Positions 4,770 through 55,048 of a stretch of 58,449 nucleotides of DNA are shown here, one piece after another (the first letter of the stretch is position 1; every line of letters starts with the position of its first letter). The notes beneath the pieces are model-generated. The model ran no database searches, was not told the DNA's origin, and worked only from the letters and a program-made list of their open reading frames with translations. A program made the translations under genes and the position numbers. The DNA lies in IMG/VR virus record IMGVR_UViG_3300017913_001414, positions 1-58,449 of that record, one strand, 5' to 3'. Source of the DNA: a virus. Lineage: Duplodnaviria > Caudoviricetes.

Positions 4770-6238
4770 TGCCCTCCGTGGGTACATCCCTGCAATATGA
4801 CCCCCTGTTTCCCGGGGGTAGCGAGACGTTCACCTCGTCCGGAACATTTAACTTGCCTCCGGGTATTCATGTTGTAACCGCTACTGTTGTCGGTGGTACT
4901 GGTAATTCGGGGACTTCTGGGAACGCAGGCACTGATGGCAACTCAGGCAACCCCGGCACAGCAGGCGCTGCCGGTAATGCTGGCGCGGCTGGAAATCCCG
5001 GTAACCCCGGAAACTCAGGCAATAATGGTTCTGGTGGTGCAGGGGGCGCAGGGGGGAATGGTAATCCCGGTAACCCGGGAAATCCGGGTACAGCGGGCGG
5101 AGGCGGCGGAGGCGGCGGAGGCGGCGGTGGTGGTGTTTTTAATCTACAACTCAAAGGTCAGCCTCCAGTACCCCCCGCCGTTCAGGGAAACCCCGGAAAC
5201 CCCGGCAATGCAGGTCCGGGTAACAGGGGTGGCAGCGCGGGTACGGGGGGGACCGGATATGGTAATCCAGGTGGTGCTTTTAACACTCCCGGGAACGCCG
5301 GAGGCGCTGGTAATGCTGGAAGCGCAGGAACCAATGGTAACAGCGGCAATTCTAATGCAGGCAGCGCAGGTAGCCCCGGAAATGCTGGCGCGAATGGTAA
5401 TGCTGGTAACGCTGGCTCAGGTGCTAACTCAGGCGGCGCGGGCGGAAGCGGCACAGCTGGCAATCCGGGGACGGCAGGTACTGCCGGAACTGACGGCTCT
5501 TCTGGCAACACGGGGGCAGCATCAAGCTTTGGAACTTACGTAACTGCAAATGGCGGGGCGGGTGGTGCTGCTGGCACCGGAGGGGCTGCGGGTACAGCTG
5601 GTACTGCCGGTACTGCGAATGACGGCAATCCCGGCAACCCCGGCAACAGCGGCACAGCTGGTAATGGGGGTAGTGCTGGTAATCCGGGCGCTCAGGGCGG
5701 CACTGGCAACCCCGGCACAGCTGGCAATCGTGGAAATGCTGGCAGTGCTGGGAGTGCTGGTGGGGGTGGTAACGGCGGCAGTGCAGGGAGTAATGCTAGC
5801 TCAGGCACAAACGGTAACACAGGAAGTCCCGATGGCAACCTTAACTCGTTTGGCAATGGTGGCAATAAGGGTAACAGAAACGCATCCGCAAATTATGGAA
5901 ATGCTGGCAACGGAGGTCGAGGTGGCAGACCTAATAATGGCGCCCCCGGAAATTCTGGAGGTTCCGGGTCATCCGGTAACACTGGCTCAACGGGCGCTAA
6001 TGGAACTGGGGCTACAAGCGGCAACCCCGGAAACGCAGGCGCAAATGGCAATGCAGGCTCCGCAGGTAGCGCCAACTCAGGCGGCGCTGGTAACTCAGGC
6101 ACACCCGGAAACGCTGGGGGTTCTGGTTCCGCAGGCAATACAACTAATCAGCAGCAAAGAATAAATGTTGCTCAACAAGCGGTTTCTGTTACAGTTGGAA
6201 GCGGTGGCTCAGTAGAGGTAAATTGGAGTAGACAATGA
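4769..6238 (+). CDS. Gly-rich G-X-X repeat fibre protein
   Basis: Long runs of GNP/GNA/GSA/GTA triplets and a poly-Gly tract; TFTSSGTF and VTVGSGG flanking motifs. Confidence 0.8.
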   Translation: MPSVGTSLQYDPLFPGGSETFTSSGTFNLPPGIHVVTATVVGGTGNSGTSGNAGTDGNSGNPGTAGAAGNAGAAGNPGNPGNSGNNGSGGAGGAGGNGNPGNPGNPGTAGGGGGGGGGGGGGVFNLQLKGQPPVPPAVQGNPGNPGNAGPGNRGGSAGTGGTGYGNPGGAFNTPGNAGGAGNAGSAGTNGNSGNSNAGSAGSPGNAGANGNAGNAGSGANSGGAGGSGTAGNPGTAGTAGTDGSSGNTGAASSFGTYVTANGGAGGAAGTGGAAGTAGTAGTANDGNPGNPGNSGTAGNGGSAGNPGAQGGTGNPGTAGNRGNAGSAGSAGGGGNGGSAGSNASSGTNGNTGSPDGNLNSFGNGGNKGNRNASANYGNAGNGGRGGRPNNGAPGNSGGSGSSGNTGSTGANGTGATSGNPGNAGANGNAGSAGSANSGGAGNSGTPGNAGGSGSAGNTTNQQQRINVAQQAVSVTVGSGGSVEVNWSRQ

Positions 6239-7954: not shown

Positions 7955-8637
7955 AATATTTTTCCGCCTTAGTGTCCCTAGTTAAATTCAACAGAACTAG
8001 GGGTGAGGAGTCCATACGGCATATTAGGGAAGCTATGCTTTGTCTTGACGGCGGGGCATCACAAAGCGCTCACGATATATTTATTGAGCAAGGAGGGTAC
8101 CTGTACCTACCCCAAGTCCTTTCAAACACAGAGTACTTAGAGTCCCTCCCTCCAGACTCTCTGGGCGCTCACTACCTTAGACATATTACAGACGGTGTGG
8201 ACGATAAGGTCTCAAGGTTATCATCTATTGTTCATGCTAACCCAGAAAGTTCCATAGAACATTTTATGGCGCGGCAAGCTGATGTTCATGACCTGATGCA
8301 TGTTTTGTTGGGGTACGGGAAAGAGAGGCTTGGAGAGGCTTGCGTTGTTAGTGCTTATTCAAACTACTATAAGGGTTGGCGCTTGATTGTTGTGGGGGGG
8401 ATTGTGTTGAATATGTTCCGGCGCAGGCTTTTTATCCCAAGTAGGATTCGTGACGTATGGAGGGCTGTCTATACTGAGCCGAGGCTTAGGGCTGCTTCTA
8501 TCGAGTGTTGGGACTTAATACACTGGGAGAGGTATTTGGCTCATCCGATTGAGGATGTCCGCAGAAGGTTCGGTGTTTATCCATCTGAGCATTATAGCTT
8601 GGTTCAAAGAAAATATTTATCTGAGGGAGGTATATAA
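7915..8637 (+). CDS. Coq4-like protein
   Basis: L.SLP..SLG..Y, HDLMHVLLGY (HDxxH) and GEA motifs of the Coq4 family. Confidence 0.7.
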   Translation: MYRKHKDSSNKSIKYFSALVSLVKFNRTRGEESIRHIREAMLCLDGGASQSAHDIFIEQGGYLYLPQVLSNTEYLESLPPDSLGAHYLRHITDGVDDKVSRLSSIVHANPESSIEHFMARQADVHDLMHVLLGYGKERLGEACVVSAYSNYYKGWRLIVVGGIVLNMFRRRLFIPSRIRDVWRAVYTEPRLRAASIECWDLIHWERYLAHPIEDVRRRFGVYPSEHYSLVQRKYLSEGGI

Positions 8638-9193: not shown

Positions 9194-9889
9194 ATGTCAT
9201 TCGCTAAGGCAACATTTTCGCAGGCAGCATTTTCGGCTTTGGGCATCAGTCCGAATGTCGTTGCCATTGTCACTGGCCTATCTGCCACCGCAACCGACGG
9301 AGTCGTTACGATTTCGACGGATGGTAGTGTGGCTGTTGCTGGGCAATCCGCCACATCTGCTGTAGGCTCTGTCAGTGTTGCCGAGGGGGTCGGTGTTTCT
9401 TTAACGGGATTGCAAGCTACTGGCTCACTGGGGTCGGTATCTGTTTCGGAGGGGGTTGGCGTTGATGTGTCTTTGACGGGTCAAGCTGGCACCACTGCGG
9501 TTGGCACCGTAAGCATTACAGAGGGAACGGGCGTGAGTGTGTCCCTGACAGGTATCGCAGCGACAACCTCTGTTGGGGATGTTGTTGTGGGTATCCCCAT
9601 CGATGTTCCGGTCACAGGTCTTTCGGCCACTGGCTCAGTTGGTGAGGTCGTTGTACCTGTAACTGTGGGTGGCCTCGAGGCGACAGGTGGCGTTGGATTC
9701 GTTCTTATATGGGGTGATGTGCAGCCCGGTATCAATCAGGTCTATACAGAGGTCGCTGAAGGCACCACCCCGTCTTGGTCAAACGTATCCGGAGGTTCCG
9801 CCACATGGGTGGAGATAGATGAGGGTGACGCAGAAACATGGACAGATATTAGTGGTGGAGGTCAGTCATGGACAGATATTGCAGCCTGA
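9194..9889 (+). CDS. virion protein with V-S-L-T-G repeats
   Basis: Repeated (V/L)TG.SAT..VG.V motifs and a W-containing acidic C-terminus. Confidence 0.7.
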   Translation: MSFAKATFSQAAFSALGISPNVVAIVTGLSATATDGVVTISTDGSVAVAGQSATSAVGSVSVAEGVGVSLTGLQATGSLGSVSVSEGVGVDVSLTGQAGTTAVGTVSITEGTGVSVSLTGIAATTSVGDVVVGIPIDVPVTGLSATGSVGEVVVPVTVGGLEATGGVGFVLIWGDVQPGINQVYTEVAEGTTPSWSNVSGGSATWVEIDEGDAETWTDISGGGQSWTDIAA

Positions 9890-10011
9890 TTGTTTTGACC
9901 GGACTGGCAATGGGTATCGGATTATTGTATTATAGTCCTGAGTTTCAAGAGGCTCTGGTCACCCAGAAAAAGGGTGAGTTGGTCAGGGCGTGGCTTTGCC
10001 AATGTTATTAA
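9868..10011 (+). CDS. 47-aa membrane peptide (not in ORF track)
   Basis: GGAGG upstream of ATG; MDRYCSLIVLTGLAMGIGLLYYSPEFQ...; fills the apparent intergenic gap. Confidence 0.55.
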   Translation: MDRYCSLIVLTGLAMGIGLLYYSPEFQEALVTQKKGELVRAWLCQCY

Positions 10012-36486: not shown

Positions 36487-37395
36487 TTATGCGATTGGCG
36501 GGAAGCCATCGCCTTCACGAATAGTCATGTCTGCTTTGGTGCAAGCGCGACCAAGCCGATGCTTCGTGAATGCTTTTAGTAATAAAGCGTTATGCGTTGA
36601 TACGTCAATCCTCATGCGGTTAGACACACGAATACGCATGATACTCTCAAGCAGGTAACGTGCTGGTGCGCGAGGCCCAGAACCAGTACCAGACTGCAAG
36701 CATTTCATGAAGTCTTTTGCTTCCTCAGAATACCCAGCCTTGTGCCACAAGTAGTGCATTGCCGCAAGCGGTGCAGTGAGCAGAGATGTTGTTCTGTTCG
36801 TAGCTTTCGCTGTCTTTACGCAAAACTGGAGAAGGGTTTGGTCTACCTTGTTGAGGTAAAAATCCTTCACCTGTTCATTCGTCCAGTTTAGAGATTGCGT
36901 GGTTAGCTTTTCATTCTGGAACGCCAAGATAAATCGCGCAGCAGTGCCAGTATCTTTGGGATATTGCACACCCATAATGCTAAACACGTCAGTGTTGGAG
37001 CGTTGCGCCCCGCTATCCATGTGAGCAAAGGTGGATGGGTCAATGCCAAACACAGCGTGTGTCGTGAAGCTAGAGCCAGAGCGCACACAAGCGGCCAGTC
37101 TGTTCTGCCCGTCCTTGAGATGTCCGTCTGTGCCGAACTTCACGCTCTCACCTGTCAGCGTCCACTTATCATCCTTCATGTCGGTGGCATACTGTGCAAT
37201 CTTCTTGCTTTTCTTTGGGCGATTACCCACGTTGAGATTTTCCAGTATGTAAGCTGCTAAGTCTGGTGAGAACTCGACCACCCTTGAGTTTTGTGGCGGG
37301 TTCTTTACTAGCGATTTTAAGTTGTCCACTTGCGTGTGGACATCTAAGTCAGCCGCGATGCGGCGTTGGTTTGAAATGATGTCGTTAGCCATCAC
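36487..37395 (-). CDS. ParB/Srx-like N-terminal domain protein
   Basis: NR......YA.DM....W..TGE...F...G.L.DGQNRL.A motif; D.G..RS..D. Confidence 0.7.
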   Translation of the reverse strand: MMANDIISNQRRIAADLDVHTQVDNLKSLVKNPPQNSRVVEFSPDLAAYILENLNVGNRPKKSKKIAQYATDMKDDKWTLTGESVKFGTDGHLKDGQNRLAACVRSGSSFTTHAVFGIDPSTFAHMDSGAQRSNTDVFSIMGVQYPKDTGTAARFILAFQNEKLTTQSLNWTNEQVKDFYLNKVDQTLLQFCVKTAKATNRTTSLLTAPLAAMHYLWHKAGYSEEAKDFMKCLQSGTGSGPRAPARYLLESIMRIRVSNRMRIDVSTHNALLLKAFTKHRLGRACTKADMTIREGDGFPPIA

Positions 37396-37500
37396 TTACC
37401 TTTCTGCCTCTTGTCCGTTTGTAGAGGCCTGTCGCCTTGCTCAAGGGCATGGTTGTCCTCATTCTGGTTGAGCAATCCAGAAAATTACATATAACTTTTT

Positions 37501-37541
37501 AAGAAAAGCGGGGCAGCCCATCCTTCCAAAGACTGCCCCGC
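37501..37541 (-). terminator. intrinsic terminator of the early operon
   Basis: Minus strand GCGGGGCAGUC-loop-GGCUGCCCCGC followed by UUUUCUU. Confidence 0.75.
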
Positions 37542-37655
37542 AAGAGGGTGGCACGGAGGTAAAGCCACCCTATCAGCCAGTGTCCCGTTGGGTGTAGTGC
37601 GTTACTCTACCTGTGGGAGTACACAGAAACACTGGTCTGTTATTAGGTGACGCTA

Positions 37656-37919
37656 TCAGTCATCCCCAAGCTGGTCAAGGATTTCTTTGTCCTCCGTCAT
37701 TACCTTCTGCACCACTTCTAGGATTTCCTCCTTCACGTTGTGGCGCACAGAAAGAACCACACCATCAGCGGTCATGATGCATATGCATGGCTCGTCATGT
37801 GAAGATAACTCTATATCATCACTCCACATATCACGGGTCATCCCCGTGACCTGCTTCGCGGTTATGCCAAGCTTCTTACACTCAGCTTCATATGCCTGCC
37901 TAGCTTGCTCTATGTTCAT
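37656..37919 (-). CDS. hypothetical early protein
   Basis: 87-aa ORF with RBS. Confidence 0.55.
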   Translation of the reverse strand: MNIEQARQAYEAECKKLGITAKQVTGMTRDMWSDDIELSSHDEPCICIMTADGVVLSVRHNVKEEILEVVQKVMTEDKEILDQLGDD

Positions 37920-38088
37920 CGTCCATCCCCTTCAGTTCTGACATAAACAATCTGGCAGTTGCGTATGCCGCAGCAAAGCACATCAAAGCCACAAACCAGT
38001 CGGCACGGATGCCATCCATGCCAGCGAATAGAAGACCGACAAACACAAGCAAGCCAGTCATCAGTGCGTAAAATAAAGCCATAAACAT
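37900..38088 (-). CDS. two-TM membrane protein
   Basis: Two hydrophobic segments; GAGGGA RBS. Confidence 0.6.
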   Translation of the reverse strand: MFMALFYALMTGLLVFVGLLFAGMDGIRADWFVALMCFAAAYATARLFMSELKGMDDEHRAS

Positions 38089-38107
38089 ATTAGTCCCTCA
38101 ATCCTCA

Positions 38108-38326
38108 TCAGACCTCGTTTGTATCATACCAATACGGCTGCACTGGTTTGATTACAGTGTCATCAAACACCTCACCCATGTCAGCTTCTTCTTCCCGAAT
38201 GGTATCAACAATTTCATTGGCAGCTTCGGCATCAACCGCTTCCACCACATACTCACGCGCCTCTGCGTGAATAAAAGTTACACGAAACTTTTTCGTTTCG
38301 ACAACATTGATTTTATCTTGCGTCAT
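38108..38326 (-). CDS. acidic hypothetical protein
   Basis: VEA.D.E.A motif; GGAG RBS. Confidence 0.6.
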   Translation of the reverse strand: MTQDKINVVETKKFRVTFIHAEAREYVVEAVDAEAANEIVDTIREEEADMGEVFDDTVIKPVQPYWYDTNEV

Positions 38327-38637
38327 TTTACAATCTCCAAATAACTTTCACCCTGATTTTCTCTGAGCAGCTTATACACTCGCTCGACATTTTGATAAAC
38401 CTCTTTGGCTATCTCAGGGTCTTGAACAAACTCAGTGACAACATTCAGGTTGTCACCAAACCAATCGCTACACCCATTAAGCGCATACAGTATCTCTGGT
38501 AGGACAGAGATAATAAACTCGTATTGCTTATTGGGTTCGCAGACAACGTCACCCGTAGACTTGCTACGGATGACGAGGCCATCTGCATCCCAAGTGTCGT
38601 AAGACACCTTGCGCCAGTGACCATTTTTATGTGGCAT
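38323..38637 (-). CDS. hypothetical protein
   Basis: AGGAGG RBS; MPH..G.W start. Confidence 0.65.
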   Translation of the reverse strand: MPHKNGHWRKVSYDTWDADGLVIRSKSTGDVVCEPNKQYEFIISVLPEILYALNGCSDWFGDNLNVVTEFVQDPEIAKEVYQNVERVYKLLRENQGESYLEIVK

Positions 38638-38646
38638 ATAATCCTC

Positions 38647-39534
38647 CTATAGTTCATCAAGTAGTTGTGAAAGAACCTCGCCCTTTGTGCGGCGGCGCAG
38701 CAACGCCTCTGCATCGGAAAGGTTCACGCCGATACCATGCACTGGTGTGTCAGACCCGTCAAGGCTTGTGACCCATCGCTCATGCTCCTCAGCCCTACCA
38801 TTTCTCGATACAATTACACGGCATTTGTAGACAGATATACCATCCTCAGACAGTCGTTTGACTTCACGCTTCTTGGCTTGAAGTACAAACACCTGACGCA
38901 GCTTCGGGTCTTTGATGACACTCAGCCCACGATTGTAGACCTGAGACAGCCAAGCTGGAGAAACATGAACAATGTTCTCAGCATAGTGCTGCTTCTCTGG
39001 TCTAGGCTCTATGCCTACTGGCTCTTTACCACAATAGACTTTCCAGTATGAGCGTTGGAACGTGTCGCATATTGTGCGATAGGCAACAATCTGACTGTCA
39101 TCTTTGTGGCGAGACATGGGTTGGTAGTCGTCACACTTTTGGAGACCCTTGCGGTAATCCCTGATTGCCTCGACTAGCTTTGAGCCGTAATGGTCGAAGG
39201 CACTGCGGAGAGCATACCCAGCTTCGCCGCCAAGTTTTTCCACAATGTCTTCGGCTGTAGAGAAGTCATCATTCCTCGAATATGAAGCCCTGCTAAACTG
39301 CCCCAACGCTTTGCTCGGAAGACCATACTTGGCACAGTGGTCTTTGAGTTCCTGCTTGGCAAACTGATGCATCTTATGTGCATACTCCGCTAGACGGGCG
39401 CGGGAAGCACTATTGCGAAGGAAGCCGATATCGCTATCGTCTGGGTTTGCCTCCGCGTGTTTGTGCAGATGAATTAAGTTCAGCAGCGTTGCGGGGTTAT
39501 CCCGCACCGCCTTCTTGTCATTATCGTGTATCAT
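38647..39534 (-). CDS. hypothetical early protein
   Basis: Start corrected to MIHDND after a GGAGG RBS; the upstream part of the listed ORF overlaps the VWA gene. Confidence 0.7.
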   Translation of the reverse strand: MIHDNDKKAVRDNPATLLNLIHLHKHAEANPDDSDIGFLRNSASRARLAEYAHKMHQFAKQELKDHCAKYGLPSKALGQFSRASYSRNDDFSTAEDIVEKLGGEAGYALRSAFDHYGSKLVEAIRDYRKGLQKCDDYQPMSRHKDDSQIVAYRTICDTFQRSYWKVYCGKEPVGIEPRPEKQHYAENIVHVSPAWLSQVYNRGLSVIKDPKLRQVFVLQAKKREVKRLSEDGISVYKCRVIVSRNGRAEEHERWVTSLDGSDTPVHGIGVNLSDAEALLRRRTKGEVLSQLLDEL

Positions 39535-39535
39535 A

Positions 39536-40693
39536 TCAAACCTCCATTTGTAGATAAGTTGTTTCACCGAATGGTGCTTCTGGGGTGCGGTCATTCGTGC
39601 CGACCCACAGGACAGGATAGTCGGGTGCATCATTCGGATAGTCATTGACCTCAAGGTCAGACAGGTAGACAAGATTGTCCACCGCCAGTTGGTGTTCGGC
39701 AATGTAGTTGAACACTGGCCTGACCCGTGTGCCGCCTCGACCTTTGGCAGAAAAGTTATCGATAACTTCTCCCTGCTCATAGGTCTTGGTGTATTGCACC
39801 TCAGTGTCACAGGCAATCACAGTGATGCTGCGCGGTGACAGTTCATCACTGATGGCGTTCATCTCACCAAGAAAGTGAGCCAGTTCATTAGCCGATACTG
39901 ACGCACTGGTATCAATGGCAATCACCACATCGCCAGTGCCAATCTTGTCAACCGAAGGCATCACCATTTGATACTGGTGGTATGCCTTGCGGTGTGGGCG
40001 CGACCATGAGTAGTCATCTGGCTGGTCACCACCAACAAAGCGGCGCAGCACATCACGCCAGTCAACCTGTGACCGCTTCATGCGGTCAACCAGTTGCTCG
40101 ATTTGCGCTGGCAGCTTGCCGACAGCTTTGGCAGATGCGGCGGCGATAAACACCTTTTGCTCCACATCAGCCTCAGCCATCTTTTTCTCAGCGTCAGACA
40201 GTTCCGACCCGTCAGGATTGGTCATGTCCAACACCATGCCCCAGCCAGCAGCATTGTCACTGGCGTCAGTTGGAAGGCGGTCATAGATAGCCTCAGCCGA
40301 CAGGTCAGCATACTGCTTGTCATGAAGGCCGCCCTCAGGGAGAACAAAGGCAGGCGTATAGTCGCCGTTCTTATCTTTCTCCTGAGCAGACAGAATGATG
40401 TCATTGATGGCATAGTCACAGGCCACATTCCATCTGTCCTTGTCGCGCTCACCGCGCCGCAGCATGTGCTTGAAAACGACATGCAGCACCTCGTGAGCAA
40501 TCACACCACGGATTTCTTCCTCAGTGTGTTCGTCAATGAAACCAGCGGAGTAGAATATACTACGCCCGTCAGTTGCCATTGTTTCTATCTCTTGGCTCTC
40601 AACGAAAGCGAGAGATAGGGCGCACGAACCAAAGAACGGCTGGCGTATGAGCAAGCGCGTCTTGGCTCGTGCAATCTTATCGGATGCGTTCAT
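39536..40693 (-). CDS. metallopeptidase-VWA protein (DUF2201-like)
   Basis: TMATDG, HEVLH (HEXXH), WN.ACDYAIN, MIDAS DTSAS, GRGGT. Confidence 0.9.
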   Translation of the reverse strand: MNASDKIARAKTRLLIRQPFFGSCALSLAFVESQEIETMATDGRSIFYSAGFIDEHTEEEIRGVIAHEVLHVVFKHMLRRGERDKDRWNVACDYAINDIILSAQEKDKNGDYTPAFVLPEGGLHDKQYADLSAEAIYDRLPTDASDNAAGWGMVLDMTNPDGSELSDAEKKMAEADVEQKVFIAAASAKAVGKLPAQIEQLVDRMKRSQVDWRDVLRRFVGGDQPDDYSWSRPHRKAYHQYQMVMPSVDKIGTGDVVIAIDTSASVSANELAHFLGEMNAISDELSPRSITVIACDTEVQYTKTYEQGEVIDNFSAKGRGGTRVRPVFNYIAEHQLAVDNLVYLSDLEVNDYPNDAPDYPVLWVGTNDRTPEAPFGETTYLQMEV

Positions 40694-40701
40694 GCAACCT
40701 C

Positions 40702-41721
40702 CTACAGGACTAGTGATTTACCCTTAGTCAAAATCCATTGCTTGACCGCCTCAGCGCGTTTCAACTCAGGGTCGCGGTTCAGCGCATCCTTGATGGTGAA
40801 GGCCGCAAATTCCTGATGCGGTAAGCGGTTGAGATATTTGACCACATTGGCAATGTTCGACTTGTTGGCCTTGTGAGCCAGCGCAGCGCAGATGGCATAG
40901 CCGATGGACGGGTCTTCTGAGACCTCAGCCGTGTCGGGGTTTGCAATCAGCTTGTCGATATCTGGGCAGGTCTCATAGACACGCAGGAAGCCGACAAAAT
41001 CAGCCGCCGCACCCTGTCCAACCTGACCAGCCAGTGCCTCATTCTGACAGGTGCTGTCCAGCTTCCATTGCAGGACGCTAGACACACGCTCCCATGAGCG
41101 AGGTGAGGGACACGCATTTGCATCGCGGTCAAACTTGTGCAGGAACTCAGGGCGAAAGCGCAGGAAGGCGCAGACGCGAGGGTCTATCTGCTTGCTGTTG
41201 AAATAACCGACAGTGTCCTCAAGGTCAGCCTCGACCTCTAGGAACATCAGGCGGTCACGCAGGTGTGTGGGCATCTGGTTCGTGCCAGCCTTGTCGCTGG
41301 TGCGGTTACCAGCCGCCACAATCACCCAGCCATCTGGCAGGTGGTGTTGGCCTACACGCCGTTCATTGACGATTTGTGCCGCGATATTCTGATTGGCAAC
41401 AGGGGCTTGGGGCAATTCGTCTAGGAACAAAATACCTTCGCCATCTGCTGGCATCCAGTCAGGACGGGCGCGATACATGGTCTCGCCATCTTTGTTGGGT
41501 AACACCCAGCCAGCCAATTCGCCAGCGTCATACTGAGCCAGCGACACGATGCGGCAGTCAACGCCACGCGCATCTGCAACATCTTGGATGATGGTTGTCT
41601 TGCCCAAGCCTGCGCCGCCCACAAGGTACGGCACGACATACTGGGCATCCCGCCCGTCAGTGATTGACAGGTTGCTGTCGATTGAAGCCTCGACAATGGC
41701 TTTTGCTTGTGAAAGTTTCAT
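40702..41721 (-). CDS. MoxR-like AAA+ ATPase
   Basis: Walker A GGAGLGKT, Walker B LFLDE, AAGNR..D.AG, L.DR, PSPRSWE. Confidence 0.92.
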   Translation of the reverse strand: MKLSQAKAIVEASIDSNLSITDGRDAQYVVPYLVGGAGLGKTTIIQDVADARGVDCRIVSLAQYDAGELAGWVLPNKDGETMYRARPDWMPADGEGILFLDELPQAPVANQNIAAQIVNERRVGQHHLPDGWVIVAAGNRTSDKAGTNQMPTHLRDRLMFLEVEADLEDTVGYFNSKQIDPRVCAFLRFRPEFLHKFDRDANACPSPRSWERVSSVLQWKLDSTCQNEALAGQVGQGAAADFVGFLRVYETCPDIDKLIANPDTAEVSEDPSIGYAICAALAHKANKSNIANVVKYLNRLPHQEFAAFTIKDALNRDPELKRAEAVKQWILTKGKSLVL

Positions 41722-41745
41722 GTAACTTTACCTCCGTTCATGAAT

Positions 41746-41799
41746 TGCTGTTTCGACCTAGTCGGTCTCATCAGTGCAGGTCACTACCTACAGACAGCA
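41746..41799 (-). ncRNA. type III hammerhead ribozyme (HH1)
   Basis: RNA: UGCUGU-C^-UGUAGGU AGUG ACCUGCA-CUGAUGA-GACC GACUA GGUC-GAA-ACAGCA; full core and three stems; predicted cut between 41793 and 41792. Confidence 0.93.
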
Positions 41800-41800
41800 G

Positions 41801-41824
41801 GCAGGGCGACCTAAGCCGCCCCGC
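41801..41824 (-). other. GC-rich hairpin immediately 5' of HH1
   Basis: GCGGGGCGGC-UUAG-GUCGCCCUGC; no U-tract. Confidence 0.7.
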
Positions 41825-41833
41825 CCGTTCTCA

Positions 41834-42238
41834 CTAAGAGACCGCTACCGCGCTCTCCAGTTGAGCCTCAATCTTCTGCACATCTTCAGCGAGTTTTTCG
41901 GTTGCCTCGACAACAGCGTCCAGTGCAGACATGTCGGTGCGGGGCAAACCCAAGCGCTTGATTACACCAGCAGGGAAGTGCCGTGCTGGGTGCAGTGCAA
42001 CCCGATGGGCTTTCGTGATGACGCTAGCGAGTGCCGTTGAAAGCACGTTGTAGCTTATCTCGAAGCCGCCCAAGCTATCGGCGTAGATAACGCCGAAGTC
42101 ATCTTCGGGGTCTAGCCAGTCGCCAGCCACAAAGTGAGCAACCTCATAGTGCCGAATTTGCACATCAAAGTTTGCATCTTTGTTCTCGATGACAGCGAGA
42201 TAGAATTTGTTGGCGAGTGGGATTGTGATTTGAGCCAT
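41834..42238 (-). CDS. hypothetical early protein flanked by two hammerheads
   Basis: Start corrected to MAQITIP after a GGAGGU RBS. Confidence 0.75.
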   Translation of the reverse strand: MAQITIPLANKFYLAVIENKDANFDVQIRHYEVAHFVAGDWLDPEDDFGVIYADSLGGFEISYNVLSTALASVITKAHRVALHPARHFPAGVIKRLGLPRTDMSALDAVVEATEKLAEDVQKIEAQLESAVAVS

Positions 42239-42267
42239 GTGAACCTCCGAATGTTTCATGGAACTTT

Positions 42268-42322
42268 TTGCTGTTTCGGCATATTAGCCTCATCAGTGCG
42301 GGTCACTACCCGCAGACAGCAA
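42268..42322 (-). ncRNA. type III hammerhead ribozyme (HH2)
   Basis: RNA: UUGCUGU-C^-UGCGGGU AGUG ACCCGCA-CUGAUGA-GGC UAAUAU GCC-GAA-ACAGCAA; predicted cut between 42315 and 42314. Confidence 0.93.
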
Positions 42323-42352
42323 GCGGGGCAGCCAGAGGGATAGCCGCCCCGC
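42323..42352 (-). other. GC-rich hairpin immediately 5' of HH2
   Basis: GCGGGGCGGCUA-loop-UGGCUGCCCCGC. Confidence 0.7.
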
Positions 42353-42358
42353 CCGTTG

Positions 42359-43024
42359 TTACTCAGCCGCGAAAGCCTCGACAACGTCTTCGACAGTGTC
42401 GGCTTCCTCAGCAGCAGCCTGAGCCGCAGCGCGAATGTCATGCTTGCGATGCACCGCATCGGTCAGCTTGGCAACGAAAGCAGCCAGTGCTTCCAACTCA
42501 TCATTGCGGTCATCAAAGCCGTTGAGCAGCGCAGCAGCCTCGCTGATATTGCCAGTCTTGGTCTCGCGACCAACAACCTTTTCGACAAGCAAATCTTCCT
42601 GAGATTTCTCATCATCACCGCAAACCAGCTTGCGAAGCTTGGCCTCGCTGGTCACCTCAGCCTGCTCGAATGCTTCAAGCACAGCGTCAGCAGTCACGTT
42701 AGTGCCTTCGCCAGTTGAGAAGCCGAAGTAGCGCACAGCCGCTTGACTGTTCTCGACATACTTTTTGATGGTTGCAGGCTTGAGGCCGCAATCAATCTCA
42801 AGCAAATCGCGAATGTCTTTGGCGATGGACACGGGCAGCTTGCCCTTAGCTGTCCATTCGTTCTTGCACATTTCAGCAATCAGGTCTGCATAACACGCAA
42901 CCTTCAGCACGTTGGCTTGGTCAGTGTTGGCTGCATTGTCAGCACGAAGCGTTGCAATGCCACCCTCACGATTTGCGATGTTGTCCAGAATGTCCTGCTC
43001 GAATGAAAGAGTGAATTTAGTCAT
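42359..43024 (-). CDS. acidic helical hypothetical protein, first early gene
   Basis: 221 aa, A/E/D-rich; GGAGGU RBS; lies between HH3 and HH2. Confidence 0.8.
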   Translation of the reverse strand: MTKFTLSFEQDILDNIANREGGIATLRADNAANTDQANVLKVACYADLIAEMCKNEWTAKGKLPVSIAKDIRDLLEIDCGLKPATIKKYVENSQAAVRYFGFSTGEGTNVTADAVLEAFEQAEVTSEAKLRKLVCGDDEKSQEDLLVEKVVGRETKTGNISEAAALLNGFDDRNDELEALAAFVAKLTDAVHRKHDIRAAAQAAAEEADTVEDVVEAFAAE

Positions 43025-43046
43025 GGTGTAACCTCCGATTGGTAAA

Positions 43047-43099
43047 CTCTGTTTCGGCCTTTAGGCCTCATCAGGGGCAGCACACACTGCCCGACAGAG
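43047..43099 (-). ncRNA. type III hammerhead ribozyme (HH3)
   Basis: RNA: CUCUGU-C^-GGGCAG UGUGUG CUGCCC-CUGAUGA-GGCC UAAA GGCC-GAA-ACAGAG; predicted cut between 43093 and 43092. Confidence 0.94.
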
Positions 43100-43261
43100 C
43101 CTTGCCGCCGTTGGACTGTAATCAAACGTGTACCTCAGGACGGGTGGAAGATTAGGTTGGCTAGCATCACCTGAGGGTCTCTCACCCCAGCAGCTAGCGA
43201 GAGCCTGTCTCGCCTTGTTGTTGCGCTTCGTTTTTGGGCAGCGTCCCCATCGGATGACCAT

Positions 43262-43300
43262 TATGTACCGCACCTAGATTTTACAGTCAACACTTTTTTT
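43262..43300 (-). promoter_or_regulatory. sigma70-like early promoter with UP-like A tract
   Basis: Minus strand AAAAAAAGTG-TTGACT-17 nt-TACATA. Confidence 0.6.
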
Positions 43301-43435
43301 ACACCTGTTACAATGCAGGGTGAGTAAGGGTTTGCGGCGATAGTAAATTGTTCCATGTAACTTTTTTTGATACACTGGTGACAGAATTGACGGGGTAAAA
43401 TCCCGCACCAAGCGAAGCGCATGGAAGGCGATACA

Positions 43436-43894
43436 ATGGCTAAGGGTAATAAACCAAATCACCTGTCACTGGTGGCAGATAACCTAACAGGGAAGCAAGA
43501 AGCCTTTGCTCAGAAAGTAGCAGCAGGGGCAGTGCTGTCAGATGCCTACAGGGAAGCCTATGAGGCAGAGAATATGAAGGATAGCAGCATATGGACTGAG
43601 GCCTGCAAGCTAGCGCAGCACCCAAAGGTCTCCCATAGGATTAAAGCTATTCAGGCTGATATTGAGGCAGACCGCCGCACGAGAGAGGCTAGGCGAGAGG
43701 AATACGTTTTGAAAATGCTTCAGGCGGAGGCAGAAGGGGCTGAGACAGACGGGGCAAGGGTTCGTGCGCTGGAATTACTGGGCAAGACCATTGGCATGTT
43801 CACCGACAGGGTTGAGACCGATGACCAAACAGAGCGCAGCGCGGCAGACATTGAGGCTGAGATTCGCAGGACGCTAGCGAGGCTGGGGGATTGA
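43436..43894 (+). CDS. terS: terminase small subunit
   Basis: LT.KQE.FA, AY..AY, A.KL..HPKV..RI, ALELLGK..GMFTDRVE. Confidence 0.85.
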   Translation: MAKGNKPNHLSLVADNLTGKQEAFAQKVAAGAVLSDAYREAYEAENMKDSSIWTEACKLAQHPKVSHRIKAIQADIEADRRTREARREEYVLKMLQAEAEGAETDGARVRALELLGKTIGMFTDRVETDDQTERSAADIEAEIRRTLARLGD

Positions 43895-54500: not shown

Positions 54501-54583
54501 ATTTGTCAACAAGTGGTACAATGACCTGTTCCTTGACAGTCGCATGAGGCGATTGACAACAACCCAAGACAAGGAGATTGACA

Positions 54584-55048
54584 ATGGGTCAAACTACTTT
54601 TTCAGGTCCGGTTCGTTCTGAGCGCGGATTTACAGCAGTTGGTTCAAACGCTGTAGTTAATATCACAGCAGAAACAACTCTTACATATGCAGACCATGTT
54701 GGCCGCATCATTGAAATCAATGACGCAGACGGCGCGGTTACGCTTCCCTCAATTACTTCAGACACTATTGGTGCAAAGTACACGTTCTTTGTTGGTACAG
54801 ACGCAACTGACCTTGACATCAAAACTGATGGCACGGACAAGTTCTTAGGTTCTGTTAGTGTTATTGGAGCAACCACCGCTGGCTTTGTGCCGGGTGCAAA
54901 CAATGATGTTATCTCAATGAACGGCGGCACCACTGGTGGTGACAAAGGCTCGTATGTAGAGGTCACCGCATTGGCTACCGCTGAATATTTAGTTCAGGGT
55001 GTTCTGGTTGGCGCGGGTACCGTAGCTACACCTTTTGCTGATAGCTAA
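54584..55048 (+). CDS. virion structural protein
   Basis: MGQTTFSGPVRS start; ATPFADS end; AAGGAG RBS. Confidence 0.75.
   Translation: MGQTTFSGPVRSERGFTAVGSNAVVNITAETTLTYADHVGRIIEINDADGAVTLPSITSDTIGAKYTFFVGTDATDLDIKTDGTDKFLGSVSVIGATTAGFVPGANNDVISMNGGTTGGDKGSYVEVTALATAEYLVQGVLVGAGTVATPFADS

Follow-up and report, generated by a model that had tools for sequence, protein, structure and literature searches.

Regulation by pairing between the two ends of an mRNA has so far been documented for a few bacterial genes, icaR and hbs among them. In icaR of Staphylococcus aureus, a pyrimidine-rich anti-Shine-Dalgarno (anti-SD) sequence in the 3′ untranslated region (3′UTR) reportedly complements the SD sequence of the same mRNA, and Ruiz de los Mozos and colleagues are said to have proposed in 2013 that this blocks translation and brings about duplex-dependent decay. 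A related principle is used in trans by S. aureus RNAIII and other UCCC-loop sRNAs, which mask SD sequences with C/U-rich hairpin loops, and sRNAs derived from 3′UTRs are also known. A recent preprint on B. subtilis describes how distal anti-SD-like 8-mers, including those in 3′UTRs, pair with the ribosome-binding site (RBS), promote decay and block translation, with long-range effects measured over hundreds of nucleotides; it cites icaR and the 5′-3′ UTR pairing of hbs, and describes anti-SD-like sequences as depleted from genes (Gill et al. 2025; PMC12697547). In phage and prophage operons, hammerhead ribozymes have been found to flank genes, where a long transcript is cut to gene-sized mRNAs (Perreault et al. 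2011; PMC3088659).

Here we describe a phage operon with a candidate element of this kind at its 3′ end. The window (the whole stretch of 58,449 nt that was analyzed) is a complete tailed-phage genome of ~58 kb originating from marine metagenomes, and its leftward operon ends in a hairpin, SL2, that carries an anti-SD sequence in its loop. Like icaR, the operon has an anti-SD in the 3′UTR that complements an SD of the same transcript; unlike icaR, that transcript would be a polycistronic phage RNA of 4.3 kb with a hammerhead-made 5′ end, the motif lies in a loop beside the terminator, and the regulatory pairing is a predicted one. SL2 shares with the SD-masking sRNAs an apical-loop seed directed against an SD region and a terminator hairpin at the 3′ end, but it is encoded by a phage, finds its best target in its own operon, and would belong to a discrete sRNA that is only putative. 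As in the B. subtilis work, a far-off anti-SD is able to pair with an RBS and CCUCC is depleted in the operon; the part of that work compared here concerns avoidance and synthetic insertions, whereas the phage lineages keep one copy and expose it in a loop, which implies that it is used and not avoided (PMC12697547). Several hammerheads are present, as in the operons of Perreault et al., here three, each with a GC hairpin before it and an RBS after it; the phage adds a 3′-terminal anti-SD hairpin, which the passages of that work compared here do not describe (PMC3088659). A search of article full texts brought up no description of a phage 3′-terminal anti-SD hairpin.

Organization of the leftward operon

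The plus strand of the window encodes terminase, portal and major head protein, and the genome also encodes a primase/helicase, an exonuclease and a Sak-like annealing protein. The leftward operon (Table 1) contains, downstream of the hammerhead HH1, genes for a MoxR-like AAA ATPase, a DUF2201 VWA/metallopeptidase protein and five small or unknown proteins; the stop codon of its last open reading frame is at 37656, which leaves a 3′UTR of ~155 nt. The operon probably starts near 43300, and a plus-strand gene at 43421-43894 stands between it and the genes further left. This 157-aa frame, within the leftward "early" region, has a homologue in the relatives L084/85 (46% amino acid identity over 156 aa), which makes it a real gene, and one that divides the leftward genes into two units. 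For the gene that follows HH2, the ATG at 42238, with GGAGGU 7 nt upstream, is a likelier start than the first in-frame ATG at 42259.

Table 1. Coordinates in the window of the operon, its ribozymes, the terminal hairpins and the proposed pairing partners.
Feature	Position	Strand	Basis or remark
Leftward operon	~43300 to 37500	minus	three type III hammerheads inside
HH3, type III hammerhead, followed by RBS UCGGAGGUU	43046-43100	minus	RF00008 match
HH2, type III hammerhead, followed by RBS UCGGAGGUU	42268-42322	minus	RF00008 match
HH1, type III hammerhead	41745-41800	minus	predicted cleavage between 41793 and 41792
Small RBS hairpin UUCAUG...CAUGAA	41717-41744	minus	-6.5 kcal/mol, z -2.6
ACGGAGGUAAAGUUAC, ATPase SD and spacer, target of the loop	41722-41737	minus	complementarity
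AAA ATPase gene, MoxR-like, phrog_1297, 339 aa	40702-41721	minus	RBS is the best target of the loop
SL1, long imperfect stem-loop upstream of SL2	37574-37639	minus	3′UTR fold
SL2, 8-bp stem AGGGUGGC/GCCACCCU with 11-nt anti-SD loop UUUACCUCCGU	37545-37571	minus	fold; homologues in L079, L085, L113/116, L103
16 nt of SL2 (GGUGGCUUUACCUCCGU side) able to pair with the ATPase start	37553-37568	minus	complementarity; perfect 12 nt at 37553-37564
SL3, terminator hairpin GCGGGGCAGUCU...GGGCUGCCCCGC	37508-37541	minus	fold; missing in relative L079
U-tract UUUUCUU after SL3	37501-37507	minus	sequence
5′ leader of the ParB-like gene (36487-37395)	37396-37475	minus	conserved in 13 phage lineages

The three hammerheads score between 39.4 and 46.9 bits against Rfam RF00008 (gathering score 48.5; E 7e-8 to 9e-6), and each has the CUGAUGA...GAAA core, three stems and GUC cleavage triplet of a type III hammerhead. 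The HH1 stem carries three compensatory pair changes in the relative L079. A GC-rich hairpin stands before each ribozyme, and the RBS after each has a CGGAGGU core; the core that the first-pass annotation had seen shared behind HH2 and HH3 is present, both sites having the same sequence. The GC hairpin before each hammerhead would become the 3′ end of the upstream cleavage product, and predicted cleavage at HH1 would make the ATPase RBS the first RBS of an RNA of ~4.3 kb that ends at the terminator. Among 48 relatives of the AAA ATPase (at most 71% identical, L002 excepted), no hammerhead precedes the ATPase gene; the sole candidate there, a downstream hairpin of G/C runs in L039/L042, was ambiguous and was set aside. 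Separately, six viral contigs of 50-64 kb (L058, L065, L069, L071, L073 and L074) have CCGGAGGUUUGAAACCCUCC after a hammerhead; it forms a local hairpin whose SD-like GGAGG pairs with a CCUCC lying a few bases further on, and no start codon comes after it at the usual distance.

The SL2 loop and the RBS of the AAA ATPase

The whole 3′UTR folds into three stem-loops (SL1, SL2 and the SL3 terminator hairpin; z -4.0), of which SL2, running on the minus strand from AGGGUGGC (37571-37564) through UUUACCUCCGU (37563-37553) to GCCACCCU (37552-37545), reaches -15.2 kcal/mol when folded alone (z -3.5). Together with UUUUCUU, SL3 makes up a predicted intrinsic terminator. SL2 itself does not qualify as one in the window, since it is followed by CUU and then by SL3, and the UUUUCUU tract belongs to SL3 only. 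Its loop is unable to pair with the 5′ arm of its own stem in the window (GGUGG); in L079, an alternative fold of this type is possible (GGAGG/CCUCC). When 37380-37700 was compared with Rfam, the best hit had an E of 0.76 (10-17 bits, against cut-offs of 44-80), and across the window only Mu-gpT-DE, located elsewhere, reaches its gathering score.

The sequence CUUUACCUCCGU (37564-37553), which comprises the loop and the closing C, is the exact reverse complement of ACGGAGGUAAAG (41737-41726), which ends 4 nt before the ATPase ATG (41721-41719), and the 12-mer is present exactly twice in the window, at these two sites. Three claims of the first-pass annotation are borne out by these comparisons: a minus-strand hairpin with the stem and loop sequences that it described, a position just before the terminator, with SL3 and UUUUCUU directly downstream, and a 12-nt perfect antisense match of the loop to the ATPase RBS. 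Beyond the 12 perfect pairs, UUAC can pair with GGUG, which brings the match to 16 bp; this extension consists of two G·U pairs, one A-U and one C-G pair, and ends at the base before the AUG. With a duplex energy of -26.4 kcal/mol for the 16 bp, the ATPase site is the second-best non-self site genome-wide, and co-folding of the 5′ end of the HH1 product with the 3′UTR gains 8.3 kcal/mol over the separate folds, the opening of SL2 included. The predicted unpaired probability exceeds 0.9 both for the SL2 loop and for GGAGGUAAA of the ATPase RBS; the predicted small RBS hairpin has the SD in the loop and the AUG within the stem. As both loops are predicted to be exposed, a loop-loop first contact is plausible. 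The hallmark of icaR, a 3′UTR anti-SD complementary to an SD of the same transcript, is thus found here over 12 perfect bp, or 16 with two G·U pairs.

The same letters read on the plus strand give the hairpin ACGGAGGUAAA, which could be a CsrA/RsmA-type GGA-loop site, a resemblance noted at first pass, or an SD decoy. CsrA/RsmA binds GGA in the hairpin loop of a transcribed RNA, usually at several sites. The plus-strand loop does contain A-C-GGA, as a single site; in the window, in L079 and in L085 alike, neither a gene nor a start codon lies downstream of it on the plus strand, and the nearest plus-strand operon ends ~1 kb off, behind a minus-strand gene. We regard a function of the plus strand as extremely unlikely. 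The terminator, for its part, works on the minus strand only, because no U-run follows on the plus strand. We also considered a small plus-strand open reading frame behind the SD-like sequence and discarded it, as the window, L079 and L085 all lack a start codon at a usable distance.

Probability of a chance match

When the ACCUCC core was kept and the remainder of the 12-mer randomized, 39 of 20,000 sequences perfectly matched any of 80 start regions (P=0.002), and a 12-nt match by chance within this genome is unlikely. In the same randomization, matches of at least 8 nt were frequent given the core (P=0.72). Half of the match (6 of 12 nt) is the SD/anti-SD core itself, as the first-pass annotation had cautioned in calling the match partly plain SD consensus. 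By our estimate, ~100 chance inverted repeats of 12 nt are to be expected in 58 kb; it is therefore the placement that is unusual and not the length alone. Because the match was picked from a very large scan, P=0.002 is weak when taken alone: the window is one among very many that were scanned, and a 1-in-500 coincidence was bound to appear somewhere.

A loop motif kept on different stems

A comparison of 37300-43200 with a phage GenBank collection (blastn, distant mode) gave zero matches, and scanning genomes for prophages with the ParB-like alignment found nothing. None of the sequencing runs listed as containing the stretch is recorded as RNA. Contigs from four runs in four studies represent strains 95-99% identical to the window; those from runs X1 and X5 are identical across the hairpin, and the X8 contig has three differences in 37300-37696. 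In the ~98%-identical fragment L002, hairpin and RBS are both unchanged, which adds little information. A metagenome scan found one further relative, L079, which is ~88% identical around the ATPase. Its terminal hairpin, GGGGGAGGCGC-uucuaACCUCCGU-GCGCCUCCCC (also written GGGGGAGGCGC-UUCUAACCUCCGU-GCGCCUCCCC), has a stem rebuilt by a U-A to A-U swap and extra G-C pairs, and a loop altered in its 5′ part with ACCUCCGU intact. L079 is without a second terminator hairpin; UACCUUUUC, a weak tract, directly follows the SL2 homologue, which may therefore itself be the terminator there.

Deeper relatives were found through the conserved leader upstream of the ParB-like gene. The ParB-like loci fell into 33 sequence clusters, of which the 13 with the leader are the lineages compared here. 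L084/85/86 are fully syntenic with the window (amino acid identities of 83% for terminase, 45% for the ATPase and 50% for the ParB-like protein), and their operon ends in a long hairpin with the apex GCGGG-UAACCU-CCCGC. L113/116 end in GGUUGGUGCGG-...GGGUUUCCUCCCUUA-CCGCAUCAACC (also written UUUCCUCCCUUA); L103 ends in UCAGUGUUG-...GGGGUUUCUCCUUUC-CGACACUGA (also written UUUCUCCUUUC) with, as in the window, a separate terminator after it. A small apical GGG/CCC stem takes up half of the motif in L085 and L113, which counts against its pairing with an SD. An anti-SD-like loop is thus present in 5 of the 13 leader-bearing lineages, counting the CUCCU of L103, and absent in any form from the other 8; in the five, the motif [A/U][A/U](C/U)CUCC is kept on four or five unrelated stems. 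A seed kept more strongly than its scaffold, as expected of a 3′UTR-derived sRNA, is therefore found, but in 5 of 13 lineages only. The more distant, hammerhead-bearing L059/60/66/67/70 have ACCUCCGG between stop codon and terminator of a hammerhead-led single-gene mRNA with the RBS ACGGAGGU, and their sister lineage L061/62/76 has no counterpart of ACCUCCGG.

Up to 650 nt upstream of the ParB-like gene, CCUCC occurs in 4 of the 13 lineages, and all five occurrences lie in the terminal hairpin (four in the loop, one in the stem). Outside the hairpin, the sense strand of the operon has no CCUCC at all, in the 5.8 kb of the window (3.35 expected), the 4.9 kb of L079 (2.2 expected) or the 6.2 kb of L085 (5.9 expected), which fits the published depletion of anti-SD-like words from mRNAs as presented in the text considered here (PMC12697547). 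Other occurrences were rejected: the free-loop hairpin pattern matches L051-L055 in viral contigs (besides L002) are unrelated to the locus, four of them being the same GC-rich stretch, and CCUCC upstream of the ParB-like genes of L143/144, L152, L160 and L165 is antisense to minus-strand genes or lies in AT-rich sequence without a hairpin.

These comparisons bear on the main alternative, that SL2 is purely structural, an ancestral intrinsic terminator or protector of the 3′ end against exonucleases in the manner of the GC hairpins before each hammerhead, and that the match is SD consensus plus chance. The L079 homologue, as the only terminator-like structure before UACCUUUUC, speaks for it, as do the plain hairpins or hammerheads that 8 of the 13 related lineages have at the site, and a match that is half SD/anti-SD core and whose extended part is not conserved. 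A structural hairpin would not, however, be expected to have loops of 11-22 nt, which are unusually large for terminators, to present the same pyrimidine motif on four or five unrelated stems, or to hold the only CCUCC of each operon; the P of 0.002 for the 12-mer and the missing U-tract of SL2 in the window point the same way. We consider a purely structural role possible but unlikely. What appears instead to be selected at the 3′ end of the operon is the exposed anti-SD motif, carried by a stem that varies; since this motif is kept while the stem changes, SL2 probably damps translation of the operon.

Possible pairing with the SDs of the operon in general

The ATPase RBS of L079 reads ACGGAGGUAAAAGUUCC, having gained an A and exchanged one A for C, with no compensating change in the loop. 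Eight contiguous base pairs are left there (-18.7 kcal/mol, against -26.4 kcal/mol in the window), and the ATPase RBS is not the top-ranked site for the loop within that locus. In L085 the loop can form 5-6 bp at the ATPase RBS and slightly more, 7 bp, at the RBS of the next gene. The lengths in both relatives are those to be expected by chance, 8 bp being what an ACCUCC core readily yields. Covariation of loop and RBS, which the first-pass annotation had set as the test that could refute its proposal, accordingly failed for the ATPase-specific part: the complementarity is not kept by compensating changes in L079 (8 bp) or L085 (5-7 bp). The ATPase-specific match of 12-16 nt is therefore a feature of this strain only, the L002-type relative included.

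We also compared the SD type of the leading gene with the loop, lineage by lineage. The SDs are CGGAGGU in the window and L079, GGGAGAC in L085, GGGAG/AGGAGA in L116 and AAGGAGA in L103, and the loops are CCUCCG in the window and L079, CCUCCC in L085 and in L116, and UCUCCU in L103. This agreement resembles co-variation and is suggestive only: in the 5x5 matrix of energies between loops and start regions, the diagonal does not stand out significantly (12 of 120 permutations are as good), nor does it when L079 is left out (4 lineages; 5 of 24 permutations as good). In the window, start regions of the operon itself give the loop stronger pairing energies (mean -11.4 kcal/mol, n=9) than do the start regions of the late genes (mean -7.6 kcal/mol, n=40; one-sided Mann-Whitney p=0.0025, with start sites assigned by a crude rule), which have AAGGAG-type SDs. 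Pairing of the loop with the ParB-like RBS or with the leader loop was rejected as a candidate, amounting to 5-7 bp that are not kept in L079. The early proposal of an anti-SD regulator at the 3′ end of the operon therefore survives in its general part, with a pyrimidine anti-SD loop kept on changed stems and CCUCC absent elsewhere, and loses the part that tied it to the ATPase, where covariation is missing.

A loop that is conserved with no significant covariation with any single RBS could also be what a protein or nuclease recognizes, for instance an RNA-binding protein of the phage or the host, or a processing enzyme. The mini-hairpin GGG-(U/A)(A/U)(A/U)CCU-CCC that recurs in L085, L113 and L094 would suit such a site, being a defined structure and not a free seed. 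The inner GGG/CCC stem is missing, however, in the window and L079, no candidate protein is known, and the motif is exactly anti-SD, which makes RNA pairing the simplest form of partnership. We judge a recognition site to be improbable.

Proposed mechanism

What is observed directly is the structure of SL2, its complementarity to the ATPase RBS, a loop motif that stays conserved as the stems change, and a depletion of CCUCC in the rest of the operon. The explanation that we tentatively place first, at somewhat less than even confidence, is that SL2 is a generic 3′UTR anti-SD element, acting in cis or as a 3′ fragment, whose partners are the GGAGGU-type SDs of the same operon. With ACCUCCGU as the anti-SD in an exposed loop, SL2 would close the hammerhead-processed operon, and this loop would pair with the strong GGAGGU-type SDs of the operon once the RNA is complete. 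Pairing could take place end to end inside the 4.3-kb RNA released by HH1, or in trans from a stable 3′-terminal fragment (SL1-SL2-terminator), and by either route would lower the translation, and probably the stability, of the operon mRNAs; both the pairing in vivo and this effect are what we infer from the comparisons above. Across the relatives, any strong SD of the operon could pair over 6-8 bp. In the window and its ~98%-identical L002-type relative, the pairing would have been tuned to the ATPase RBS, with 12 perfect bp (16 with two G·U), and this RBS would for that reason be the main target in this strain. The distance between loop and RBS, 4.2 kb with translating ribosomes between, counts against the pairing.

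A putative 3′ fragment could also act in trans mainly on host mRNAs, or on all SDs of the GGAGGU type, and so shift translation from early to late. The layout of a seed loop followed by a terminator with a U tail resembles that of 3′UTR-derived sRNAs, and the loop does discriminate SDs of its own operon from those of late genes; a single anti-SD of 6-8 nt, however, would have to compete with abundant ribosomes, and we think it very improbable that this is the main function. We assign a low probability as well to the idea that the SL1-SL2-terminator tail serves several marine phage lineages as a stable phage RNA that masks GGAGGU-type SDs, possibly those of the host too, and spares the AAGGAG-type late genes, which would amount to an early-to-late translational switch.

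If the loop does pair with RBSs of the operon as we propose, it would be a phage example of regulation by mRNA end-to-end pairing. Such pairing would here be combined with hammerhead processing, which would define the RBS that comes first, and a natural anti-SD would have been kept and displayed in an operon from which it has otherwise been purged. If SL2 is only a terminator hairpin, the finding is an ordinary one.

The ParB-like leader and the operon junction

The leader through which the relatives were found is kept although the encoded proteins are only 40-50% identical among lineages. Copies are at 4945-5024 in L079, 1235-1323 in L080 and 725-813 in L081, and also in L083, L084-86, L103, L113 and others. 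One of its hairpins has the loop A(C/U)UGCUCA; a second shows ACAAACGGAC as an invariant loop above a stem that covaries (U-A in two sequences, C-G in two), and the leader also has an inverted repeat, GCCCUUGAGCAAGGC (GCGCUGUGGCAUAGCGC in L081). It could function as regulatory RNA or, at the level of DNA, as an operator for the ParB-like protein. The L084-86 lineage has a palindrome, TTGTAC-N5-GTACAA, before the ATPase gene, a 274-aa gene and the ParB-like leader (on the reverse strand of L085 at ~5905-5925, ~8235-8260 and ~9880-9900); it takes the places that hammerheads have in the window, and is probably a repeated operator or promoter element.

Some relatives have a hammerhead at the place that SL2 and the terminator take in the window: at ~960-1020 in L081, at ~1895-1950 in L094, and ~149 nt upstream of the ParB-like start in L127/L128. 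These have an open stem I and are type I by reading. Across the relatives, the junction between the operon and the ParB-like gene thus appears to be handled by either termination or self-cleavage.

Other features of the genome

At position 40702, one metagenomic strain (the contig from run X5) has a 20-nt insertion between the ATPase stop codon and the next start codon, and loose ends of X1 and X8 at the same position suggest a variable short hairpin there. The Mu-gpT-DE match, at 54531-54586 on the plus strand, lies exactly at the gathering score (49.0 bits, E 2.6e-8); it overlaps the start of the gene at 54584 together with its RBS, and lies downstream of the gene for the major head protein.
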